50,416 nt of DNA from a virus (IMGVR_UViG_3300036822_000288:1-50416), one strand, 5' to 3'. Numbered from the stretch's first letter, positions 5,527 to 49,540 are shown. Numbers and translations: made by a program. Notes: generated by a model from the letters alone, not told the origin.

Positions 5527-6426
5527 CTACGCTCCCGCTTCATCCAGCTCCGCTTTGCGGATCAGATAAACGTCAGTGGCTTTCTCAAGGTGTACGGTGC
5601 TGTCAGCCAGCACCTTCGCCGCGTACTTGTAGAAGCGATCAAGACTCGAAACAGAATCAGCATTGGCTGAAGCTTCGGTAAAATCGGCCAGCAGCTGATC
5701 CGGCGAGCGCGGTGCATCATTGGTGCTCGTCGCCGGGTTAATTTCGCGCTCAGTCTGCTGTGTTTCGGGCTTGTTGTTGATAAGGTTGTTCAGGTCGGCA
5801 CGGCTGCGCGCCGGGGTGACATCGCGCTCTGCGCGCTGCTGAGGCTCAAATTCGTCTGGCGTGTACACACCAAGAATCACGTCAGGGCAGTACAGGCGCG
5901 CCCAGTATTTGACGGCCAGATAAGCAAGCTGCTGCTTTGGTGCTGTTTTCCAGAGCGGGGAGTTACGCGTGGTGACGTACTCCATGAACAGTGGTTCACC
6001 CCAGGTGATTTCCGTTTCACCGCGCAGCACCGCGCCGACGCGCACAAACAGGCCGCGCTCATTGGATGCGTTCGCTGCTCCCGGCTTAAACTTCTCCCAG
6101 TCGCCGCCGTATTCGTATTTGAAGCGGCCCTGAACGGCTGTTGAGCTGGTGATCACCGCGTTAACCAGTTGGGCCTCATAACCCAGCGTGCCGTTTACCA
6201 GGTGCGTTTTTTGCGCCACTGCGTAGGGATTCATTCCCCACTGTGCCGCCTGCAGCGCGATCGCCAGGCAGTCAGCAGGCTTTCCGGCCAGATGCCCCGG
6301 CACCGTTGCGCGGCCTTCGGCCATCACATTGGCAAACGCCTGTAACTTCTGCAGGCCGCTTGGGCTGAAGATGGCTGCTTTAGTATCAGCCTCATTGACT
6401 GGTGACTGCGTCAGTTCGTTGCTCAT
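5527..6426 (-). CDS. recT: RecT-family single-strand annealing protein
   Basis: GKPADCLAIALQAAQWGMNPYAVAQKTHLVNGTLGYEAQL; follows exonuclease gene. Confidence 0.9.
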   Translation of the reverse strand: MSNELTQSPVNEADTKAAIFSPSGLQKLQAFANVMAEGRATVPGHLAGKPADCLAIALQAAQWGMNPYAVAQKTHLVNGTLGYEAQLVNAVITSSTAVQGRFKYEYGGDWEKFKPGAANASNERGLFVRVGAVLRGETEITWGEPLFMEYVTTRNSPLWKTAPKQQLAYLAVKYWARLYCPDVILGVYTPDEFEPQQRAERDVTPARSRADLNNLINNKPETQQTEREINPATSTNDAPRSPDQLLADFTEASANADSVSSLDRFYKYAAKVLADSTVHLEKATDVYLIRKAELDEAGA

Positions 6427-7244
6427 GCGTAATCCTTTCTCTTGGCCCACTCAGGGCGCGTGATTTCTTCAATGCCGCCCCAGTTACCTGACTGCATGCA
6501 TTCGTGGTAGGCGGTCAGGTCGCGGCGGAACAGGTCATAACCGACTGAAACGTCATCCTCGCCGAGTTGGAAAACGCGAACCGGATACCGGCCGCAATCA
6601 ATTGACTCGCTAACGGCGATGAAAACGAAAAGCGGGTATTCGCCAAAGTGCTTGCTGTAGCCTTCGCGGTAGTAGGCGTCCTGAACGTGATAGCGGAACT
6701 CTTCGACGTGGCGCGCAAATCGGCTCATGTCCGCGACTTTCTTCACGTCCACGATCACTGGCTGGCCGGTCAGGAATTTATCCGGGCGAATACGGCATAG
6801 CTCGCCGGTTTGGTCATCGTTCCAGTAAATCGATGCTTCCTGATGCCCTTCGACTTCGAGAAGCCAGCGGGCGGCGGGATGGGCGAGGGCGCTGGCACGC
6901 ATCAGTTTCAGTTTTCGCCCCTGCTCGGCATCCATCACCGTCATACCAAGCCCTGAGCAGTCCTTCAGAAACGCCTGCTCGTTCGCTTTACCTTCGTTGG
7001 TGCGGCGGTTGAACTCCGGCGCAACGATAAACCGCTTGTCGAACTCTTCCGGCTCCAGCAGCAGGCAGTGAAGCGCGGTGCCCATATCGAGCGCCGCTTT
7101 CTTCTCTTCATCTTCAGGTGCCTCTTTGCGCCACTGGAAAATGGCTGGGTTGATCGCAATGTCATCTAGCTGCGACTTACTGATGCCGGCGCCGTGGTGA
7201 TACGCTTCGTTGCTGATGTCGAAATAAATGCCAGGCTCCATCAC
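6423..7244 (-). CDS. recE: RecE/ExoVIII-like PD-(D/E)XK exonuclease (catalytic domain only)
   Basis: GIYFDISNEAYH, GTALHCLLLEP, CRIRPDK, IVDVKK, YHVQDAYY. Confidence 0.9.
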   Translation of the reverse strand: MMEPGIYFDISNEAYHHGAGISKSQLDDIAINPAIFQWRKEAPEDEEKKAALDMGTALHCLLLEPEEFDKRFIVAPEFNRRTNEGKANEQAFLKDCSGLGMTVMDAEQGRKLKLMRASALAHPAARWLLEVEGHQEASIYWNDDQTGELCRIRPDKFLTGQPVIVDVKKVADMSRFARHVEEFRYHVQDAYYREGYSKHFGEYPLFVFIAVSESIDCGRYPVRVFQLGEDDVSVGYDLFRRDLTAYHECMQSGNWGGIEEITRPEWAKRKDYA

Positions 7245-10563: not shown

Positions 10564-11286
10564 TTAGCCGAGGCGCTTGTAGTCGATTGACTGGCGGATG
10601 AGAACCTTAGCCATCACGTGAAACTGATCCTCTTCGCCTTCCTCAATGAACCATTCTTTATAGCGCTGATTGTCGGACAGGACAGCCAGGCGATTCTTCT
10701 GCATCTGGAGGCGCTTAACGTGCATGGTCTTCCCGAACACGAAAACATAGACGCCATCGCCATCGAAGTGGGTAATGGCTAAGTCAACGAAGATCTGATC
10801 ACCCGGCTCGATTGTGCCTTCCATGCTGTCGCCACGAACGGTGATCACCTTAATGCTTTCCGCAGGGCGCGGACCAAAAAGAGCTTTAGCTTGTTCGCTT
10901 GTGTATTCAATAGCTCTTATGGTTTCAACGAATTCAGTAGACACAAGATAACCATCCCCCGCACTAGCCTGGACATCCAATACATCTACACGATAGTAGT
11001 CGGAGTCCGCCAGTCTTTCCTGTTGGGGGATTTTGATTTGTGCCGATCCACTCACTTCGGAATGCATTGGCAACTCTCCATCAGCCAGCCACTCCGGGCG
11101 AACGCCCAGAACTTTGGCTATCTCATAAAGCTTTCTGGTGTTTTTTGTAACGCCAGAAGTCAGCTTCCATACGCTTGGCTGGGCCATGCCAATGGCTTCA
11201 GCTAAAGATGCCTGCGTGTGCCCACACTCTCTCATGGCGGCATTCAATCGGTCAGCGAAAGTCATGAATTTAGTATCCTTTGTCAT
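10564..11286 (-). CDS. cI: CI repressor (HTH + S24 autopeptidase)
   Basis: HTH TQASLAEAIGMAQPSVWKL; ASAG cleavage site; VRGDSM and VKRL catalytic motifs. Confidence 0.95.
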   Translation of the reverse strand: MTKDTKFMTFADRLNAAMRECGHTQASLAEAIGMAQPSVWKLTSGVTKNTRKLYEIAKVLGVRPEWLADGELPMHSEVSGSAQIKIPQQERLADSDYYRVDVLDVQASAGDGYLVSTEFVETIRAIEYTSEQAKALFGPRPAESIKVITVRGDSMEGTIEPGDQIFVDLAITHFDGDGVYVFVFGKTMHVKRLQMQKNRLAVLSDNQRYKEWFIEEGEEDQFHVMAKVLIRQSIDYKRLG

Positions 11287-11297
11287 CCCTGAAAGAT

Positions 11298-11360
11298 ATA
11301 GCCATAGATATTTGCTGGCAAATACCCAAAGCTATTTACTATTCGGATAGCTTTGGCTAT
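11298..11360. promoter_or_regulatory. OR operators / pR-pRM
   Basis: ATAGCCATAGATAT (11298), ATACCCAAAGCTAT (11322), ATAGCTTTGGCTAT (11347). Confidence 0.82.
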
Positions 11361-11393
11361 TATCACCATAGCCACACTAGCAGGAGCTATTTT

Positions 11394-11624
11394 ATGGTCA
11401 ACAAAGCTATTAAGCAGGCTATTGACATCGTAGGCAGTCAGCAAAAGTTAGCTGATGCCTGTCTTGTTAAGCAGCCTTCTGTATGGGCTTGGTTGCACGG
11501 GAAGAAGAAGGTGTCAGCTGAGAATGCAAAGCGCATTGAGAAAGCTACCAGCGGAAAGATCCCAGCTTACCAAGTTCGCCCTGATTTAACTGACCTGTTC
11601 CCTCATCCGAACCAGGCAGCTTAA
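11394..11624 (+). CDS. cro: Cro-like (YdaS/Cro) repressor
   Basis: AIDIVGSQQKLADACLVKQPSVWAWL...RPDL; divergent from cI. Confidence 0.9.
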   Translation: MVNKAIKQAIDIVGSQQKLADACLVKQPSVWAWLHGKKKVSAENAKRIEKATSGKIPAYQVRPDLTDLFPHPNQAA

Positions 11625-11631
11625 GCAACAC

Positions 11632-11675
11632 CGCTCTTTAAAACTCTGAACCCGCTCCCGTCTAACCGCAGGAGC
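11632..11675 (+). promoter_or_regulatory. nutR (boxA + boxB)
   Basis: CGCTCTTTA then GCTCC..CTAACC..GGAGC; CTAACC loop as in phi21 boxB, consistent with the N ARM. Confidence 0.78.
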
Positions 11676-11699
11676 AAAACCCAAGTGACATTGCCATGT

Positions 11700-11713
11700 G
11701 CAAGGTCAAGCAA
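11700..11713 (-). promoter_or_regulatory. CII site of pRE
   Basis: TTGC-N6-TTGC on minus strand just upstream of cII. Confidence 0.75.
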
Positions 11714-11740
11714 ACTTATTCAACAAAGGAATATTACGTC

Positions 11741-12040
11741 ATGGAAATAGCAACTTATCGCAAAAAAGCGCGAGAGATTGAAAGCCAGCTACTGAACAAG
11801 CTGGCTGTACGTGGACAGGGAACACTGGCGAAGGTGCTGGACTTAGATGATGCAGCCGTTAGCCGCATGAAGCGCCCATCAGGAAAGCAGAAATACAGCT
11901 TCTTCCAGATGATGAGTCTGGCACTGGCTTATCTGGATGTGGTGTCGCCGGAATCTGAAGTGGCGAAGAGCCTGCTGAGGATTGAGCAGCTGCTGACAAA
12001 AGAAAAAGCCCCGAAGAACTGTGAATTCTTCGAGGCCTGA
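11741..12040 (+). CDS. cII: CII activator
   Basis: RKKAREIESQLLNKLA.RGQ..LA...AVSRMK pattern. Confidence 0.88.
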   Translation: MEIATYRKKAREIESQLLNKLAVRGQGTLAKVLDLDDAAVSRMKRPSGKQKYSFFQMMSLALAYLDVVSPESEVAKSLLRIEQLLTKEKAPKNCEFFEA

Positions 12041-12069
12041 TACTTCCAACAACTGATAGGAATAATAAC

Positions 12070-12606
12070 ATGATCCTGACTTTGAGCAAAGCAGCCCTGC
12101 TGAGTGCATTAATCTTCCAGGCTAAAAAAGATGTCCGGTATTACTTAAACGGCATCTGCTTCGCACCAGATAAAAAACTGTATTCAACCGACGGTCACCG
12201 CGCTTTTATTGGCGAGCATGACAACGCATATCTGACTGAAAACATCATCATCGCCATCAAAGGTGCCAAAGTTACCAGCTTTGAAAAGGCTGAGATCGAC
12301 ACTGAAAGCGGCTTGGTTACCTATCTGAATGAGCATGGGTCGCGCGTAGGCGCAGGCATCTGCGAAGTGGTAGATGGTCGATTCCCAGACATTGAGCGCG
12401 TCATTTCTACCTTCAAAAGTACCCCCACCGATGAGATAGGATTCAATGCCGGTTACCTCGCTGACATTGAGAAGGCTGCAAAGCTCTACAACCCTAAATT
12501 CTGCGGCATCAAGATTAAGCCCAATGGCAACACTGCGGCTTCAATCGTTGAGTTCAACAGCGCATTCGGCAACGGAAAGCTGGTGATCATGCCAATGCGC
12601 CTGTAG
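12070..12606 (+). CDS. Truncated DNA polymerase III beta-clamp (DnaN)-like protein
   Basis: DVRYYLNG, TDGHR, VDGRFPD, EIGFN, terminal IMPMRL are DnaN signatures; only 178 aa. Confidence 0.85.
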   Translation: MILTLSKAALLSALIFQAKKDVRYYLNGICFAPDKKLYSTDGHRAFIGEHDNAYLTENIIIAIKGAKVTSFEKAEIDTESGLVTYLNEHGSRVGAGICEVVDGRFPDIERVISTFKSTPTDEIGFNAGYLADIEKAAKLYNPKFCGIKIKPNGNTAASIVEFNSAFGNGKLVIMPMRL

Positions 12607-12614
12607 GAGGTGAA

Positions 12615-13541
12615 ATGAGCAACCTCAAGCGCGTTGACTTCGTTAATAAACAACTCATACCAGCGGAATCAGGAGGTCACATGGCCGACCTGTCCAACGG
12701 GTACACCAAGGTCGCCAATGAGATCCAGAAGCTAAAACCTCGCCTGAGACTATCAGGCAGGGAATGGCAATGCTTTGAAGCGGTGATATGGCTCACCTAC
12801 GGATGGAACAAAAAACAGGACAGGGTGACGAACACGGTCATTGCTGGCTTAACAGGCCTGAGTGACACGCACGTTTCGGACGCCATCAAATCTCTGGCGG
12901 AGCGGAAAATCATCTTCAGCCAGAAGCAAGGGATGATGAAACTTGTAGGGGTGAATACTGAGATTTCAGCATGGATTTTAGATAAACCGGAAGCGGGAAC
13001 AAAATTCCCGAAAACGGGAAAATCCTTCCCGAAAGCAGGAAAAACCTTCCCGAAAACGGTAGCCACCCAATACAAGAACAAGAACAGTAATAAAAACACT
13101 ACGTCAGAGAATTCTGACGAATCCACTGACTCACCTCCTAAGCAGCTTCCCGCCCTTCGTCCTGATGCAGCCACTCAATCACCCAAAGGCGATAAGTGGG
13201 GAACTGCTGACGATCTCAAAGCGGCTGAATGGCTGTTCACAAAAGTTCGAGTTGTCGCTCCGACAGCGCAAGAGCCTAACTGGCCAGCCTGGTCGAATGA
13301 TATTCGCCTTATGCGTAATGCATTGGAGTGTTCGCATCACGAAATTTGCGAAGTATTCAAGTGGGCGAATGCAGATCACTTCTGGCAGACCAACGTAATG
13401 AGCCCTGCAAAGCTTCGTGAGAAGTGGGAAACGCTCAAGGCTCAGATGAACCAACCAAACCGGAACCGACAGGCGAGCGAGCCGCAACAGCCAGCACAAC
13501 ACTGGAATAGCCGCCAAGCCTGGAAGGAGGATTTCATATGA
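12615..13541 (+). CDS. O: Replication initiator O
   Basis: MADLSNGYTKVANE...LTYGWNKKQDRV; contains iterons; FWQTNVMSPAKLREKW. Confidence 0.92.
   Translation: MSNLKRVDFVNKQLIPAESGGHMADLSNGYTKVANEIQKLKPRLRLSGREWQCFEAVIWLTYGWNKKQDRVTNTVIAGLTGLSDTHVSDAIKSLAERKIIFSQKQGMMKLVGVNTEISAWILDKPEAGTKFPKTGKSFPKAGKTFPKTVATQYKNKNSNKNTTSENSDESTDSPPKQLPALRPDAATQSPKGDKWGTADDLKAAEWLFTKVRVVAPTAQEPNWPAWSNDIRLMRNALECSHHEICEVFKWANADHFWQTNVMSPAKLREKWETLKAQMNQPNRNRQASEPQQPAQHWNSRQAWKEDFI
12984..13100. repeat. Phage origin: four 21-bp-period iterons + A-rich tract
   Basis: TTCCCGAAA(A/G)C(G/A)GG at 13005, 13026, 13047, degenerate copy at 12984. Confidence 0.85.
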
Positions 13542-14233
13542 GAAACCTCGTAACAGCTATTCAGAATCGTGATGATGGCGCGCTGGCCCGCATGGCTGGT
13601 GAGGGTCCGCAACCTGTTGATCGCGGCGTGCACGAAGACGTGGAACGCCTGGTAGACGCCCTGTTTAGTAACCTGAAGCAGGTTTTCCCGGCATCGGTAA
13701 GCACTGCATGGAAGCGCCCAGAGGACGAGGCCGCCGCCAAGCGCCAGTGGATCGCAGCCTTCGCTGAAAACGGCATTCACAATCGCCAGCAGCTTTCAGC
13801 CGGTATGCGTGAAGCACGCGCCAGTGGTTCGCCATTCCTGCCGTCACCTGGTGAGTTCATCGCGTGGTGCAAGAAAGGCGCTCTGGTCGCCGCTGGCCTG
13901 CCTGACGAAGACACGCTGTATTCGCTGGTGATGACCTACTGCGCCAAACGTGGCGGATATGTCACTGCCGAAGAATACCCATGGGGTAGCAACGCCGAAT
14001 ACTGGATGGTAACCGGCCTGTACAGCATGATGCGCGCCAACAACCTGAGCGAGTCAGAGCTGCGCGTTAAGTGCCGTTCTGAGTTGCGCAAGATGTCACA
14101 GCGTGTCGAAGCTGGCGAAGAAATCCCGGAACCGCGTAAGCAGCTGCTGAAGCTCTCCATCCCATCAACCACCGAGAAGGCACTGGAAGGTGTCGCACTT
14201 CTCCGCGCCACCATGAAGCGAGGCAAATCATGA
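13538..14233 (+). CDS. P: Replication protein P (DnaB loader)
   Basis: KRQWIAAFAENGI...PFLPSPGEFIAWC. Confidence 0.92.
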   Translation: MRNLVTAIQNRDDGALARMAGEGPQPVDRGVHEDVERLVDALFSNLKQVFPASVSTAWKRPEDEAAAKRQWIAAFAENGIHNRQQLSAGMREARASGSPFLPSPGEFIAWCKKGALVAAGLPDEDTLYSLVMTYCAKRGGYVTAEEYPWGSNAEYWMVTGLYSMMRANNLSESELRVKCRSELRKMSQRVEAGEEIPEPRKQLLKLSIPSTTEKALEGVALLRATMKRGKS

Positions 14234-14385
14234 GCGAAGGAATCCGCATTCGTTTCGAGCGATTGTACCGAAGTGTGCACGGCAATAAGCATGACCTGAG
14301 TCGAACCTATCTCGGCTATGAGGATGCTGTTGTCGACCGGGCGTTTTTCTTCTGGCTGGAAGGCAGGGAGGGAGCGGCGTCATGA
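14230..14385 (+). CDS. 51-aa hypothetical protein
   Basis: ATGA overlaps on both sides. Confidence 0.65.
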   Translation: MSEGIRIRFERLYRSVHGNKHDLSRTYLGYEDAVVDRAFFFWLEGREGAAS

Positions 14386-14726
14386 CCAAGCACGTCACTG
14401 AAATTCAGGAAGCCACACTCGACTTCATGAAGAGCTACTGCGCAGAGCACGGCTTCTTTCCGACCATCACCGAAATCACCGAAGCGATGGGATGGAAGTC
14501 GCGCAATACCGCATATCTGCACGTCAAAGCGCTGGAGAAAAAGGGCGTATTGCAACATAAGCACAAACGCAGCCGCAGCATTGTTCTCACCGACAACGGC
14601 ATCAGCCTGCCCGACATCAGCGACGAAGAGTACTGGTATGACGGCGTATTCAAGCCTCAGCTTTACCAGCGTGACGTTGTTGAAGCTATCAAATCGGCCG
14701 GCATGAAAGTTAAGGAGCCATCATGA
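14382..14726 (+). CDS. LexA DNA-binding-domain-like protein without peptidase domain
   Basis: VTEIQEATLDFM...GFFPTITEITEAMGWKSRNTAYLHVKALEKKG...SRSIVL parallels LexA N-domain. Confidence 0.8.
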   Translation: MTKHVTEIQEATLDFMKSYCAEHGFFPTITEITEAMGWKSRNTAYLHVKALEKKGVLQHKHKRSRSIVLTDNGISLPDISDEEYWYDGVFKPQLYQRDVVEAIKSAGMKVKEPS

Positions 14727-47568: not shown

Positions 47569-47991
47569 ATGAGATTTTATAGACCTGCGGAAATCCGCGC
47601 CATTTTAGAGTTGCCATTGTTCATTGACCGAGTTCCGTGTGGATTTCCATCGCCGGCACAGGATTATGTTGAGCAACGCATTGACCTTAACAGCCTGCTT
47701 ATCAGTCATCCGAGCTCGACCTATTTTATCAAGGTAAGTGGAGACTCGATGATTGACGCTGGAATCAGTGATGGTGACATGCTTGTTGTGGACAGCTCAG
47801 TCAAGGCTGAACACGGCGACATTATCGTTGCTTCACTGGGTGGTGAATTCACTGTAAAGCAGCTAATAACCAAGCCATTCCTGCACCTGAAACCTATGAA
47901 CACTGCTCACTCGATTATTCCAATTACCGAACCTGACCAGTTTGAAATCTTTGGCGTAGTGAAACACTCCATTAAGACGATGAGCCGATAA
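47569..47991 (+). CDS. umuD: DNA polymerase V subunit UmuD
   Basis: [23 protein letters not shown]. Confidence 0.95.
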
Positions 47992-49253
47992 TGTTTGCCC
48001 TGGTTGATGTGAACTCGTTCTATGCCAGTTGCGAGACGGTTTTCCGTCCTGACCTGCGCGGCAAACCTGTGGTCGTGCTTTCAAATAATGATGGCTGCGT
48101 GATCGCACGTTCTGCAGAAGCAAAAAAGTTGCAGGTGCCTATGGGCGCGCCGTATTTCAAGCTGAAAGACGAGTTCAGAAGGCATGGTGTCCAAATATTC
48201 AGTTCGAATTATGCGTTGTATGCCGACATGTCGAATCGCGTAATGACCACGCTTGAAGAGATGGCGCCAGCTGTTGAAATCTACTCAATAGACGAGGCTT
48301 TTATGCTGCTTGATGGAATGAGCAGGATTGAGCCACTGGAAGACTTCGGGCGCAGGGTAAGGGCGCGCATTAAGCAGGAAACACACCTCACAGTGGGCGT
48401 AGGCATTGCGCCGACCAAGACGCTGGCTAAGCTGGCAAATCATGCAGCTAAGAAATGGTCAAAGACCGGCGGTGTGCTAGACCTTTCCAACATCGATCGG
48501 CAGAAGAAACTCATGGCTCTGGTGCCAGTCGAGGACGTCTGGGGCGTTGGCCGGCGAATCAGTAAGAAGCTCAATGCGATGGGCATCATCACTGCCAAAG
48601 ACCTGTCAGAGCAGAGCACTTATATCATCCGGAAGCACTTCAATGTGGTGCTTGAGAGAACTGTACGTGAGTTGCGTGGCGAGCAATGCCTTGGGATTGA
48701 AGAGTTCGCACCGACCAAACAGCAAATTGTCTGCTCACGCTCGTTTGGTTCACGCATTACTGATTACAAGGAAATGCGCCAGGCCATCTGTGCTTATGCG
48801 GAGCGTGCTGCGGAGAAGCTGCGCGGAGAGCGTCAATTCTGCAGACAGGTAGCGGTATTCGTCCGAACCAGCCCGCATGCGGAAAATGAAATTTATTACG
48901 GTAATCAGGCGATGGGTAACCTGATGACCCCATCTAACGATACCCGCGACATCATCAGGGTGGCTATGGAGATGCTCGATCGCATCTGGCTTGATAACCG
49001 ACGTTACATGAAGGCAGGCGTCATGCTTGGAGATTTCTTCAGTCAGGGCGTTTCACAACTCAATCTCTTTGACGAACACAAACCACAGGCCAACAGTGAG
49101 GCGCTGATGCGCGTTGTAGATGGCCTTAACCAGAGCGGGAAGGGGAAACTATGGTTCGCAGGACAGGGTACTCAGAAAGCGTGGGCAATGAAGCGGGAAA
49201 TGCTCTCACCGGCGTACACCACTCGCTATTCGGATCTGCCAGTGGCGAGATGA
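47991..49253 (+). CDS. umuC: DNA polymerase V subunit UmuC
   Basis: ALVDVNSFYASCE, YSIDE, QLNLF, LSPAYTT. Confidence 0.97.
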   Translation: MFALVDVNSFYASCETVFRPDLRGKPVVVLSNNDGCVIARSAEAKKLQVPMGAPYFKLKDEFRRHGVQIFSSNYALYADMSNRVMTTLEEMAPAVEIYSIDEAFMLLDGMSRIEPLEDFGRRVRARIKQETHLTVGVGIAPTKTLAKLANHAAKKWSKTGGVLDLSNIDRQKKLMALVPVEDVWGVGRRISKKLNAMGIITAKDLSEQSTYIIRKHFNVVLERTVRELRGEQCLGIEEFAPTKQQIVCSRSFGSRITDYKEMRQAICAYAERAAEKLRGERQFCRQVAVFVRTSPHAENEIYYGNQAMGNLMTPSNDTRDIIRVAMEMLDRIWLDNRRYMKAGVMLGDFFSQGVSQLNLFDEHKPQANSEALMRVVDGLNQSGKGKLWFAGQGTQKAWAMKREMLSPAYTTRYSDLPVAR

Positions 49254-49540
49254 CACTGCCGGTGCAGAAAGTGATGGCAACCAGCACAACCTGTTACCTG
49301 GTGGAGTGGAAAGGGCGGAGTTGCATCGTTGATGAGAAGCGGCGGCCACAGAACGGCGATACTGTTCTGCTCGATATGTCAGGCCTCTATGAATGGGGTC
49401 ACGCCTATCTGCATCCCAGCCGGATTATCACTGATGACGGCCTTACGCTGGAAGATGATCTGCTTGAGGATGTAGCTGTGGTGGGAGTGGTGACGCATGA
49501 GGTTACCGCGATACACGAACAGGACGGTTCACCAATTTGA
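49250..49540 (+). CDS. Possible degenerate UmuD'/S24-fold protein
   Basis: CIVDEKRRPQNGDTVL...VVGVVTH; no GDSM; ATGA overlap with umuC. Confidence 0.6.
   Translation: MTLPVQKVMATSTTCYLVEWKGRSCIVDEKRRPQNGDTVLLDMSGLYEWGHAYLHPSRIITDDGLTLEDDLLEDVAVVGVVTHEVTAIHEQDGSPI

Follow-up and report, generated by a model that had tools for sequence, protein, structure and literature searches.

A short beta-clamp gene in a lambdoid provirus

The viral record IMGVR_UViG_3300036822_000288:1-50416, a complete lambdoid provirus of 50,416 bases that we refer to at its full length as the window, carries between cII and the replication initiator gene O a gene for a short relative of the bacterial beta sliding clamp, DnaN. 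A preliminary description of this gene, made from the sequence of the window alone, had picked out five DnaN motifs in order within a protein of 178 amino acids (aa), and all five are present in that order. The gene, called the mini-clamp gene from here on, and its parts are listed below, with the equivalent residues of Escherichia coli beta and with the number of members, in an alignment of 89 family members, that keep a given residue.

12070..12606, plus strand: mini beta-clamp gene, 178 aa, with an ATG start and a TAG stop; DnaN domain II (without its second helix) followed by the C-terminal half of domain III
12057..12060, plus strand: AGGA, a Shine-Dalgarno-like sequence seen in the DNA 9 nucleotides 5' of the mini-clamp ATG
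12130..12153, plus strand: DVRYYLNG, aa 21-28, equivalent to beta D150-G157; holds pocket residues R152 and L155 (R23 in 87/89 and L26 in 82/89 members)
12187..12201, plus strand: TDGHR, aa 40-44, equivalent to beta T172-R176; part of pocket subsite I and the H175 bridge (G42 in 89/89, H43 in 84/89, T40 in 80/89)
12370..12402, plus strand: VDGRFPDIERV, aa 101-111, equivalent to beta V237-V247; pocket residues P242, R246 and V247 (P106 in 87/89)
12370-12390, plus strand: VDGRFPD, aa 101-107, part of the preceding motif
12406..12432, plus strand: short linker, aa 113-121, in place of about 60 domain III residues that span strand 1, helix 1 and strands 2-4 and hold the I272/L273 interface segment, as judged from the hhalign gap, the motif spacing and DSSP of the models
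12433..12456, plus strand: EIGFNAGY, aa 122-129, equivalent to beta E316-Y323; subsite II residues N320 and Y323 (Y129 in 81/89, N126 in 69/89)
12589..12603, plus strand: C-terminal MPMRL, aa 174-178, equivalent to beta M362-L366; pocket residues M362, P363, M364 and R365 (M174 in 87/89, P175 in 86/89, R177 in 77/89)

Homology to DnaN and predicted fold

When the mini-clamp was compared to the protein chains of the PDB with phmmer, it retrieved enterobacterial beta clamps with E values from 5.8e-11 to about 1e-9, and the alignment paired query residues 10-154 with beta 138-288 and query residues 108-178 with beta 302-366, ending exactly at MPMRL. It shares about 26% identity overall with E. 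coli beta. In a profile comparison, a family profile of the 89 aligned members, aligned by hhalign to a profile of four DnaN homologues, reached a probability of 99.7% and an E value of 6e-27 over 160 columns, with one large gap at about DnaN 252-312. We also generated an AlphaFold2 model on the 89-row alignment, which had a mean predicted local distance difference test score (pLDDT) of 96.7 and a predicted template modelling score of 0.91. The top Foldseek matches of this model were all beta clamps (E about 1e-7), and VIA-align superposed 161-167 of the 178 residues on beta at about positions 126-366, with Z scores of 12.1-13.7 and a root-mean-square deviation of 2.8-3.5 Å. A structural match to DnaN had been set beforehand as the check on the identification, and Foldseek, VIA-align and hhalign all gave the beta clamp.

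Family models of DnaN recognize the protein in part. The DnaN equivalog TIGR00663 scored 22.3 bits (E 5.4e-5) over profile positions 146-254 only, below its cut-off of 137.65 bits, and the one Pfam DnaN domain to match was PF02767, at 17.1 bits under a cut-off of 27. PF00712 and PF02768 had no match in the mini-clamp, and PF02768 had none in the entire record. The mini-clamp is a true DnaN homologue, with a similarity to DnaN that is well beyond chance.

Deleted parts and ring-forming capacity

The anatomy of the mini-clamp was worked out by running DSSP on its model and on that of P0273, a DnaN homologue modelled in the same way (pLDDT 81.7). The mini-clamp retains strand 1, helix 1 and strands 2-8 of domain II, a short inter-domain helix, and the second helix and last three strands of domain III. 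All of domain I is missing, and so is the first half of domain III, comprising strand 254-259, helix 260-273 and the strands up to 309 in P0273 numbering. The preliminary description had proposed just these two losses, with VDGRFPD nearly joined to EIGFN, and phmmer, the hhalign gap and the models all bear it out. To these the models add a third loss, that of the second helix of domain II, where DnaN helix 197-206 corresponds to 8 coil residues between mini-clamp strands 59-64 and 73-77. Two long helices are left in the mini-clamp model (7-15 and 127-140) as against four in the matching region of P0273 (131-139, 197-206, 260-273 and 321-330), and two of the four helices that line the channel in the II-III region thereby remain in the model.

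These deletions bear on ring formation. The head-to-tail dimer interface of beta joins the edge of domain I to the segment of domain III around I272/L273, and both partners lie in the deleted parts, as had been proposed for the parts that close the ring. According to the portion of PMC11139829 that treats this interface, mutation of I272/L273 renders beta monomeric, and the monomeric I272A/L273A protein still binds the clamp-loader subunit delta and DNA but cannot tether DNA polymerase III (Pol III). A predicted homodimer (two copies on the 89-row alignment, run without controls) scored 0.28, 0.37 and 0.28 against a mark of 0.42, values that weigh neither for nor against a dimer. With both partners of the interface deleted, the mini-clamp is probably a protein that does not form a ring.

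Conservation of the partner-binding pocket

In beta, the pocket that receives the clamp-binding motifs of partner proteins comprises 18 residues, as given in section 11 of PMC11139829. That section assigns R152, L155, T172, G174, H175, R176, L177, P242, R246, V247, V360 and M362 to subsite I and H175, N320, Y323, V344, M362, P363, M364 and R365 to subsite II, and terms V344 non-conserved. With the residue pairing of the phmmer alignment to beta used to map these positions, the mini-clamp agrees with E. coli beta at 16 of the 18, the exceptions being L177 and V344, each of which is replaced by Ala. The claim that the segments lining the cleft are retained is upheld at the level of sequence.

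The pocket is also what the family conserves best. Nine pocket residues are kept in at least 80 of the 89 members, the six most conserved columns of the alignment are all pocket positions (G42, M174, P106, R23, P175 and H43), and the pocket accounts for 10 of the 20 most conserved columns, compared with 18 pocket positions among 178 (hypergeometric p 7.6e-7). The most economical reading of these alignments is that selection maintains a predicted, functional pocket for clamp-binding motifs on a protein that would be unable to serve as a beta-type ring.

Family size, constancy and selection

Searches with tblastn placed the mini-clamp in 253 phage records, with 243 of the 253 covered over at least 80% of the length. 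A word-indexed search yielded 355 relatives, and an exhaustive search of representatives clustered at 50% identity yielded 1638 matches at E<=1e-3, of which 176 reach E<=1e-10. The best 150 representatives are short proteins with a single exception. Lengths of 160-200 aa were found in 119/120 close homologues and in 119/150 of the best representatives; the other 31 representatives comprise 13 shorter proteins, 17 of 201-260 aa and a single 781-aa fusion. This fusion, P0206, has a mini-clamp at residues 6-186, a DUF3560 domain at 251-371 (E 1e-30) and a long tail. A search for longer forms returned only proteins of ordinary DnaN length (5 matches), and blastn in its distant mode found no match to the mini-clamp gene in complete E. 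coli genomes.

The architecture is constant throughout. The equivalents of P242 and N320 lie 17-25 residues apart in 89/89 members, compared with 77 in E. coli beta, and 18-31 residues precede the equivalent of D150, compared with 149 in E. coli. The gene is intact in 41/41 cases, namely the window and 40 IMG/VR loci. We estimated the ratio of nonsynonymous to synonymous substitution rates (dN/dS) by NG86 for 39 distinct genes. A finite estimate was obtained for 357 pairs, and of these the 99 whose dS fell at 0.05-1.5 were used; their median dN/dS is 0.094 and their maximum 0.197. The mini-clamp is under strong purifying selection with a constant architecture. The preliminary description had argued against decay, and the constant length and deletion boundaries, the 41 intact genes and the median dN/dS strongly support it; the truncation seen in homologues is constant, not random.

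The family corresponds to a known protein cluster, phrog_3007, to which residues 1-178 of the mini-clamp match over profile positions 1-186 of 190 (E 8.4e-54). In GenBank it goes under several names: among 40 listed phage records, 17 call the protein "DNA polymerase III beta subunit", 11 "RusA-like Holliday junction resolvase", 9 "hypothetical" and 1 "DNA polymerase", and 2 leave it unannotated.

Provirus setting

The mini-clamp gene sits in a lambdoid arrangement. The provirus carries, in order, an integrase, a RecT/exonuclease VIII pair, cIII, N, a cI-type repressor, a Cro/YdaS-type gene, cII, the mini-clamp, O and P, and continues 3' of P with NinB, NinG, Q, lysis, terminase, head and tail genes, with umuD and umuC at the far right. 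The genes immediately around the mini-clamp are as follows.

10564..11286, minus strand: cI-type repressor with a helix-turn-helix (HTH) domain and an S24 peptidase domain (PF00717, E 6.7e-18; PF01381, E 1.7e-7)
11394..11624, plus strand: Cro/YdaS-type gene, first of the rightward operon (PF15943, E 1.7e-20; P22_Cro, E 9e-6)
11696..12040, plus strand: cII, the 5' neighbour of the mini-clamp (PF05269, E 5.6e-13)
12615..13541, plus strand: replication initiator O (PF04492, E 4.7e-24; phrog_277, E 1.6e-103)
13538..14233, plus strand: lambda P-like helicase loader (PF06992, E 1.5e-64)

O begins with an ATG at 12615, and its ribosome site, GGAGGT, overlaps the stop codon of the mini-clamp. The mini-clamp gene is therefore part of the rightward early operon, which is repressed, and the mini-clamp and O are probably translated together. 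A scan of 11200-14400 found no plus-strand terminator-like site between cII and O, and counts of promoter- and terminator-like matches in that interval were not above those in shuffled sequence. An Rfam scan of 11500-12800 brought up no family near threshold.

Three further features of the provirus may be recorded here. On the minus strand, a strong terminator-like hairpin at 12006-12038 has 15 pairs followed by a T-run and overlaps the last codons and the stop of cII; its placement resembles that of the terminator of the lambda oop antisense RNA, and an RNA ending there would have its start within the mini-clamp gene or shortly before it and would run antisense to the mini-clamp ribosome site. 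At 14382-14726 on the plus strand lies a gene for a 114-aa protein whose first approximately 70 residues match the LexA DNA-binding domain (TIGR00498 positions 2-70 of 203, E 1.3e-13), which also matches phrog_362, "transcriptional repressor", and which has no S24 cleavage domain. Such a non-cleavable LexA look-alike, beside the replication genes of a prophage that bears umuDC, might keep LexA-box genes off in the SOS response. Finally, the leftward early operon holds at 5530-7244 on the minus strand a RecET-type module of a RecT-like annealing protein and an exonuclease VIII-like nuclease, which would be relevant if the mini-clamp acts on mismatch repair during phage recombination.

Genomic context in other phages

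Related loci found in IMG/VR numbered 42. The open reading frame (ORF) 5' of the mini-clamp is cII in 35/40 of the related loci with an ORF on that side, the remainder being one ParB-HTH gene and four without a family. The 3' side is far more varied, with an O-type gene in 12/39 loci, 23 ORFs without a Pfam family at E<=1e-5, and one each of HTH_36, Ant/Rha, an SNF2-type helicase and a methylase. The locus with the ParB-HTH gene (L039, 876-4196) carries a 53%-identical mini-clamp, followed on its 3' side by a 656-aa SNF2/DEAD-type helicase.

Named phages extend this range of settings. In Hafnia phage yong1, whose protein is 80% identical, the gene lies between cII and another kind of replication module; in coliphage Bas81 a ParB-like gene precedes it, the two belonging to a small operon within the structural region; and in a Vibrio phage it belongs to an early operon, 5' of a RepL-type gene. 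Burkholderia phage Bcep43 and a Kagunavirus each have a solitary, antisense mini-clamp gene among their head genes, with its own annotated ribosome site and terminators in the Kagunavirus. Given these varied settings, the mini-clamp gene behaves as a portable accessory cassette, and its function is independent of any particular phage initiator.

We then surveyed DNA polymerases in 16 carriers of the gene, made up of five named phages together with eleven IMG/VR records of at least 90% completeness. A family A polymerase is present in 2/16, and family B and family C polymerases are present in 0/16. On this account the mini-clamp is not a subunit of a phage-encoded, clamp-dependent replicase.

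UmuC and clamp-binding motifs

The window also encodes a protein with a canonical clamp-binding motif, at its far right end.

47569-49253, plus strand: umuD (140 aa) and umuC (420 aa), right-end cargo after the tail-fibre genes; UmuD matches NF007621
47991-49253, plus strand: UmuC ORF (NF002955, E 4e-226)
49056..49070, plus strand: QLNLF clamp-binding motif of UmuC, aa 356-360, from the motif scan

The QLNLF motif named in the preliminary description is real, and among the 69 phage ORFs scanned, UmuC is the only one with a canonical clamp-binding motif. O and P have none, and elsewhere in the phage proteins there are three loose motif matches and one Qxx[LM]F, which look incidental. Within the family, a loose motif occurs in 5/270 proteins, always inside the fold, so that the sequences give no sign of self-binding tails. 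An ORF at 49151-49540 that overlaps the end of umuC matches the UmuD-like phrog_3469 (E 8e-15).

A tie between the mini-clamp and umuDC had been suggested, and as a general rule it does not hold. An IMS/UmuC-family gene was found in 0/34 related viral records bearing a mini-clamp (0/11 among those at least 90% complete), by a search that does find UmuC in the window as its positive control. For this reason, the pairing of the mini-clamp with UmuC is incidental cargo and not a conserved partnership.

Proposed role as a pocket without a ring

We give an even chance to the reading in which the mini-clamp is a pocket-dependent competitor, or decoy, for the clients of the host clamp. The rightward (pR-type) operon would supply the protein early in the lytic cycle, its gene standing just ahead of O and P. 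As a stand-alone pocket module that does not form a ring, it would bind the QL[SD]LF-type peptides of host clients off DNA and so compete with the host beta ring for them, the candidates being Hda, MutS/MutL and Pol II/IV/V. Titration would affect accessory clients held weakly or by a single motif before the multiply tethered Pol III holoenzyme, an effect on accessory clients that is proposed because most carriers need the host replicase. We infer, in this scheme, the peptide binding, the non-ring state, the identity of the relevant clients and the net titration.

The same evidence can be put more broadly, and here our confidence falls somewhat short of even: the mini-clamp may be a viral mimic of the replication hub, a soluble, ring-less copy of the pocket carried by temperate and virulent phages (and by at least one large multidomain protein, as a fused domain). 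Such a mimic would rewire access to host clamps during phage DNA replication, for instance by stripping away Hda, mismatch-repair or translesion factors, or clamp-directed attackers.

Several observations weigh against a simple decoy. The carriers without a polymerase of their own, 14/16 in our survey, presumably need that of the host, and an indiscriminate decoy would compete for Pol III alpha too, so that the scheme has to suppose some selectivity. Pocket positions R176, L177, V360 and M364 vary in the family, and the client preference of the mini-clamp may for that reason differ from that of beta. The family is moreover basic, with a median isoelectric point (pI) of 8.3 in 119 representatives as against about 5.0 in two DnaN homologues, and Lys/Arg residues are conserved on the elements that face the channel in beta (K19 in 65/89, position 70 in 55/89, K135 in 74/89 and K138 in 67/89). 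The pI and these residues hint, at the level of sequence, at DNA binding and a recruiting instead of a sequestering role.

Alternative explanations

A recruiting role can be set out as an explanation in its own right. The mini-clamp would sit on phage DNA or replication intermediates by way of the basic face that formerly lined the channel, and its pocket would bring in Pol III, ligase, Pol I and repair enzymes without a clamp loader. The basic pI shift accords with this, as do the conserved Lys/Arg residues just listed together with K143, the position of the gene right ahead of the replication genes with its stop overlapping the O ribosome site, and the 14 carriers that have no polymerase of their own; monomeric beta, too, still binds DNA in the account given in the relevant part of PMC11139829. 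We nevertheless regard this adaptor role as unlikely, since the isolated antisense gene among head genes, a moron, and the unrelated initiators found beside the mini-clamp make a tie to one replication complex unlikely, and since DNA binding that is not topological would lend little processivity.

Clamp-binding toxins and clamp-guided transposition proteins are examples of factors that would seek out or poison foreign DNA in replication by way of the clamp pocket, and the mini-clamp might serve as a protective decoy that absorbs factors of this kind, whether encoded by the host or by rival elements. Its conserved feature is indeed the pocket, it travels as a mobile accessory cassette in very different phages, and the 781-aa fusion of P0206 to DUF3560 recalls the conflict proteins of mobile elements. 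We find this improbable all the same: PADLOC matched 0 defence or anti-defence families, no clamp-directed attacker turned up for these hosts in our analysis, and clamp, DnaN and DUF3560 go unmentioned in the polyvalent-protein paper PMC5512222.

Less probable again is a trap for the delta subunit of the clamp loader, or for the whole loader, which would alter how clamps are put on and taken off in infected cells. Delta binds monomeric beta about 50-fold more tightly than the closed ring, with a dissociation constant of about 7.5 nM as against about 460 nM in the passage of PMC11139829 concerned, and the subsite I residues that take the L73/F74 plug of delta are conserved in the mini-clamp family. 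However, the domain III loop with which delta makes further contact falls within the deletion, and a block of the loader would block the host replicase that most carriers need.

Slightly lower still we place an alternative oligomeric clamp, in which each chain would contribute three beta-alpha-beta-beta-beta modules and four chains would form a ring of 12 modules, as in the beta dimer, that acts as a processivity factor. The case for such a ring is one of module arithmetic (1.5 domains x 4 = 6 domains), joined by the need of the exposed half-domain for some cover and by the conserved basic residues on the retained inner helix. Set against this, the model has only two of the four helices that line the channel in the II-III region, conservation lies in the pocket and not on the edges, and the carriers have no clamp loader or C-family polymerase, 14 of the 16 being without any polymerase.

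That the gene is a decaying fragment of a captured dnaN (Bcep43 gp15 is annotated "DNA Pol III b subunit fragment") or encodes a RusA-type Holliday-junction resolvase (the label of phrog_3007 and of the 11 records noted above) is very improbable, the first in view of the constant architecture, intact frames and dN/dS of about 0.09. A RusA identity was rejected: a Pfam scan at E<=1 brought up no RusA family, and the top structural matches are all beta clamps. The RusA label of phrog_3007 is best read as an annotation error that has spread to GenBank records.

Relation to known proteins

Natural shortening of beta has a precedent in E. coli. In beta*, which is reportedly made from an internal start of dnaN upon ultraviolet induction, domain I is absent and domains II and III are complete, and the protein is said to act as a clamp; the mini-clamp likewise has no domain I, but it also lacks about 60 residues of domain III. 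With full-length E. coli beta (PDB 1MMI/2POL; TIGR00663; PF00712, PF02767 and PF02768) the mini-clamp has in common domain II, the last half of domain III, the 16 identical pocket residues and the MPMRL end, whereas beta is an acidic protein of 366 aa and the mini-clamp a basic, phage-borne one of 178 aa. The monomeric I272A/L273A beta resembles it in keeping the pocket and losing the ring, but is an engineered, full-length protein of three domains, while the mini-clamp is a natural form of one and a half.

Other phage proteins act on the same clamp-client network. Gp168 of a Staphylococcus phage, as described with PDB entry 7EVP, binds the host clamp, and so does MuC of phage Mu, whose over-expression the authors link, in the portion of PMC12867686 concerned, to over-initiation in the host. 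Gp168 and MuC are thus phage tools like the mini-clamp, with the difference that they bind the clamp whereas the mini-clamp imitates the clamp pocket.

The mini-clamp belongs to the short phage polIII-beta family (phrog_3007), found in Jersey-, Kaguna- and Bcep781-type phages. Short phage homologues of polIII-beta were noted in the 2011 survey of Kazlauskas and Venclovas (PMC3201878), the relevant passage of which makes no mention of the loss of half of domain III. Our literature search for the function of short phage clamps found no study, the terms "DnaN-like" and "phage" together returned none, and short phage clamps are not mentioned in PMC5512222, PMC12704722 or PMC11990801. The mini-clamp is a member of a known and annotated but functionally uncharacterised phage family, and the finding of such a protein is itself not new. 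In the provirus described here, the gene occupies the lambdoid immunity and replication region, between cII and O, as opposed to the ParB operon or head-gene moron of other family phages. What this provirus adds is a conserved slot that follows cII and precedes exchangeable replication genes. It also brings to light that the domain II helix is lost too and that the family has shifted towards basic proteins, and it lends quantitative support to selection centred on the pocket.

Bacterial replication and repair have the beta clamp as their central docking hub, and the clamp is also a drug target. A natural, strongly conserved protein that is nearly reduced to the pocket of this hub is a ready probe of the network around it. 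The fixed slot after cII in lambdoid phages makes the question testable in a genetically easy system. If the mini-clamp sequesters or redirects clients, it would show which clamp clients of the host phages remove or borrow, and it would provide a minimal scaffold for studies of pocket binding. The biology would be striking if mimicry were shown: hub mimicry, if true, would represent a new class of host-takeover or counter-defence protein.

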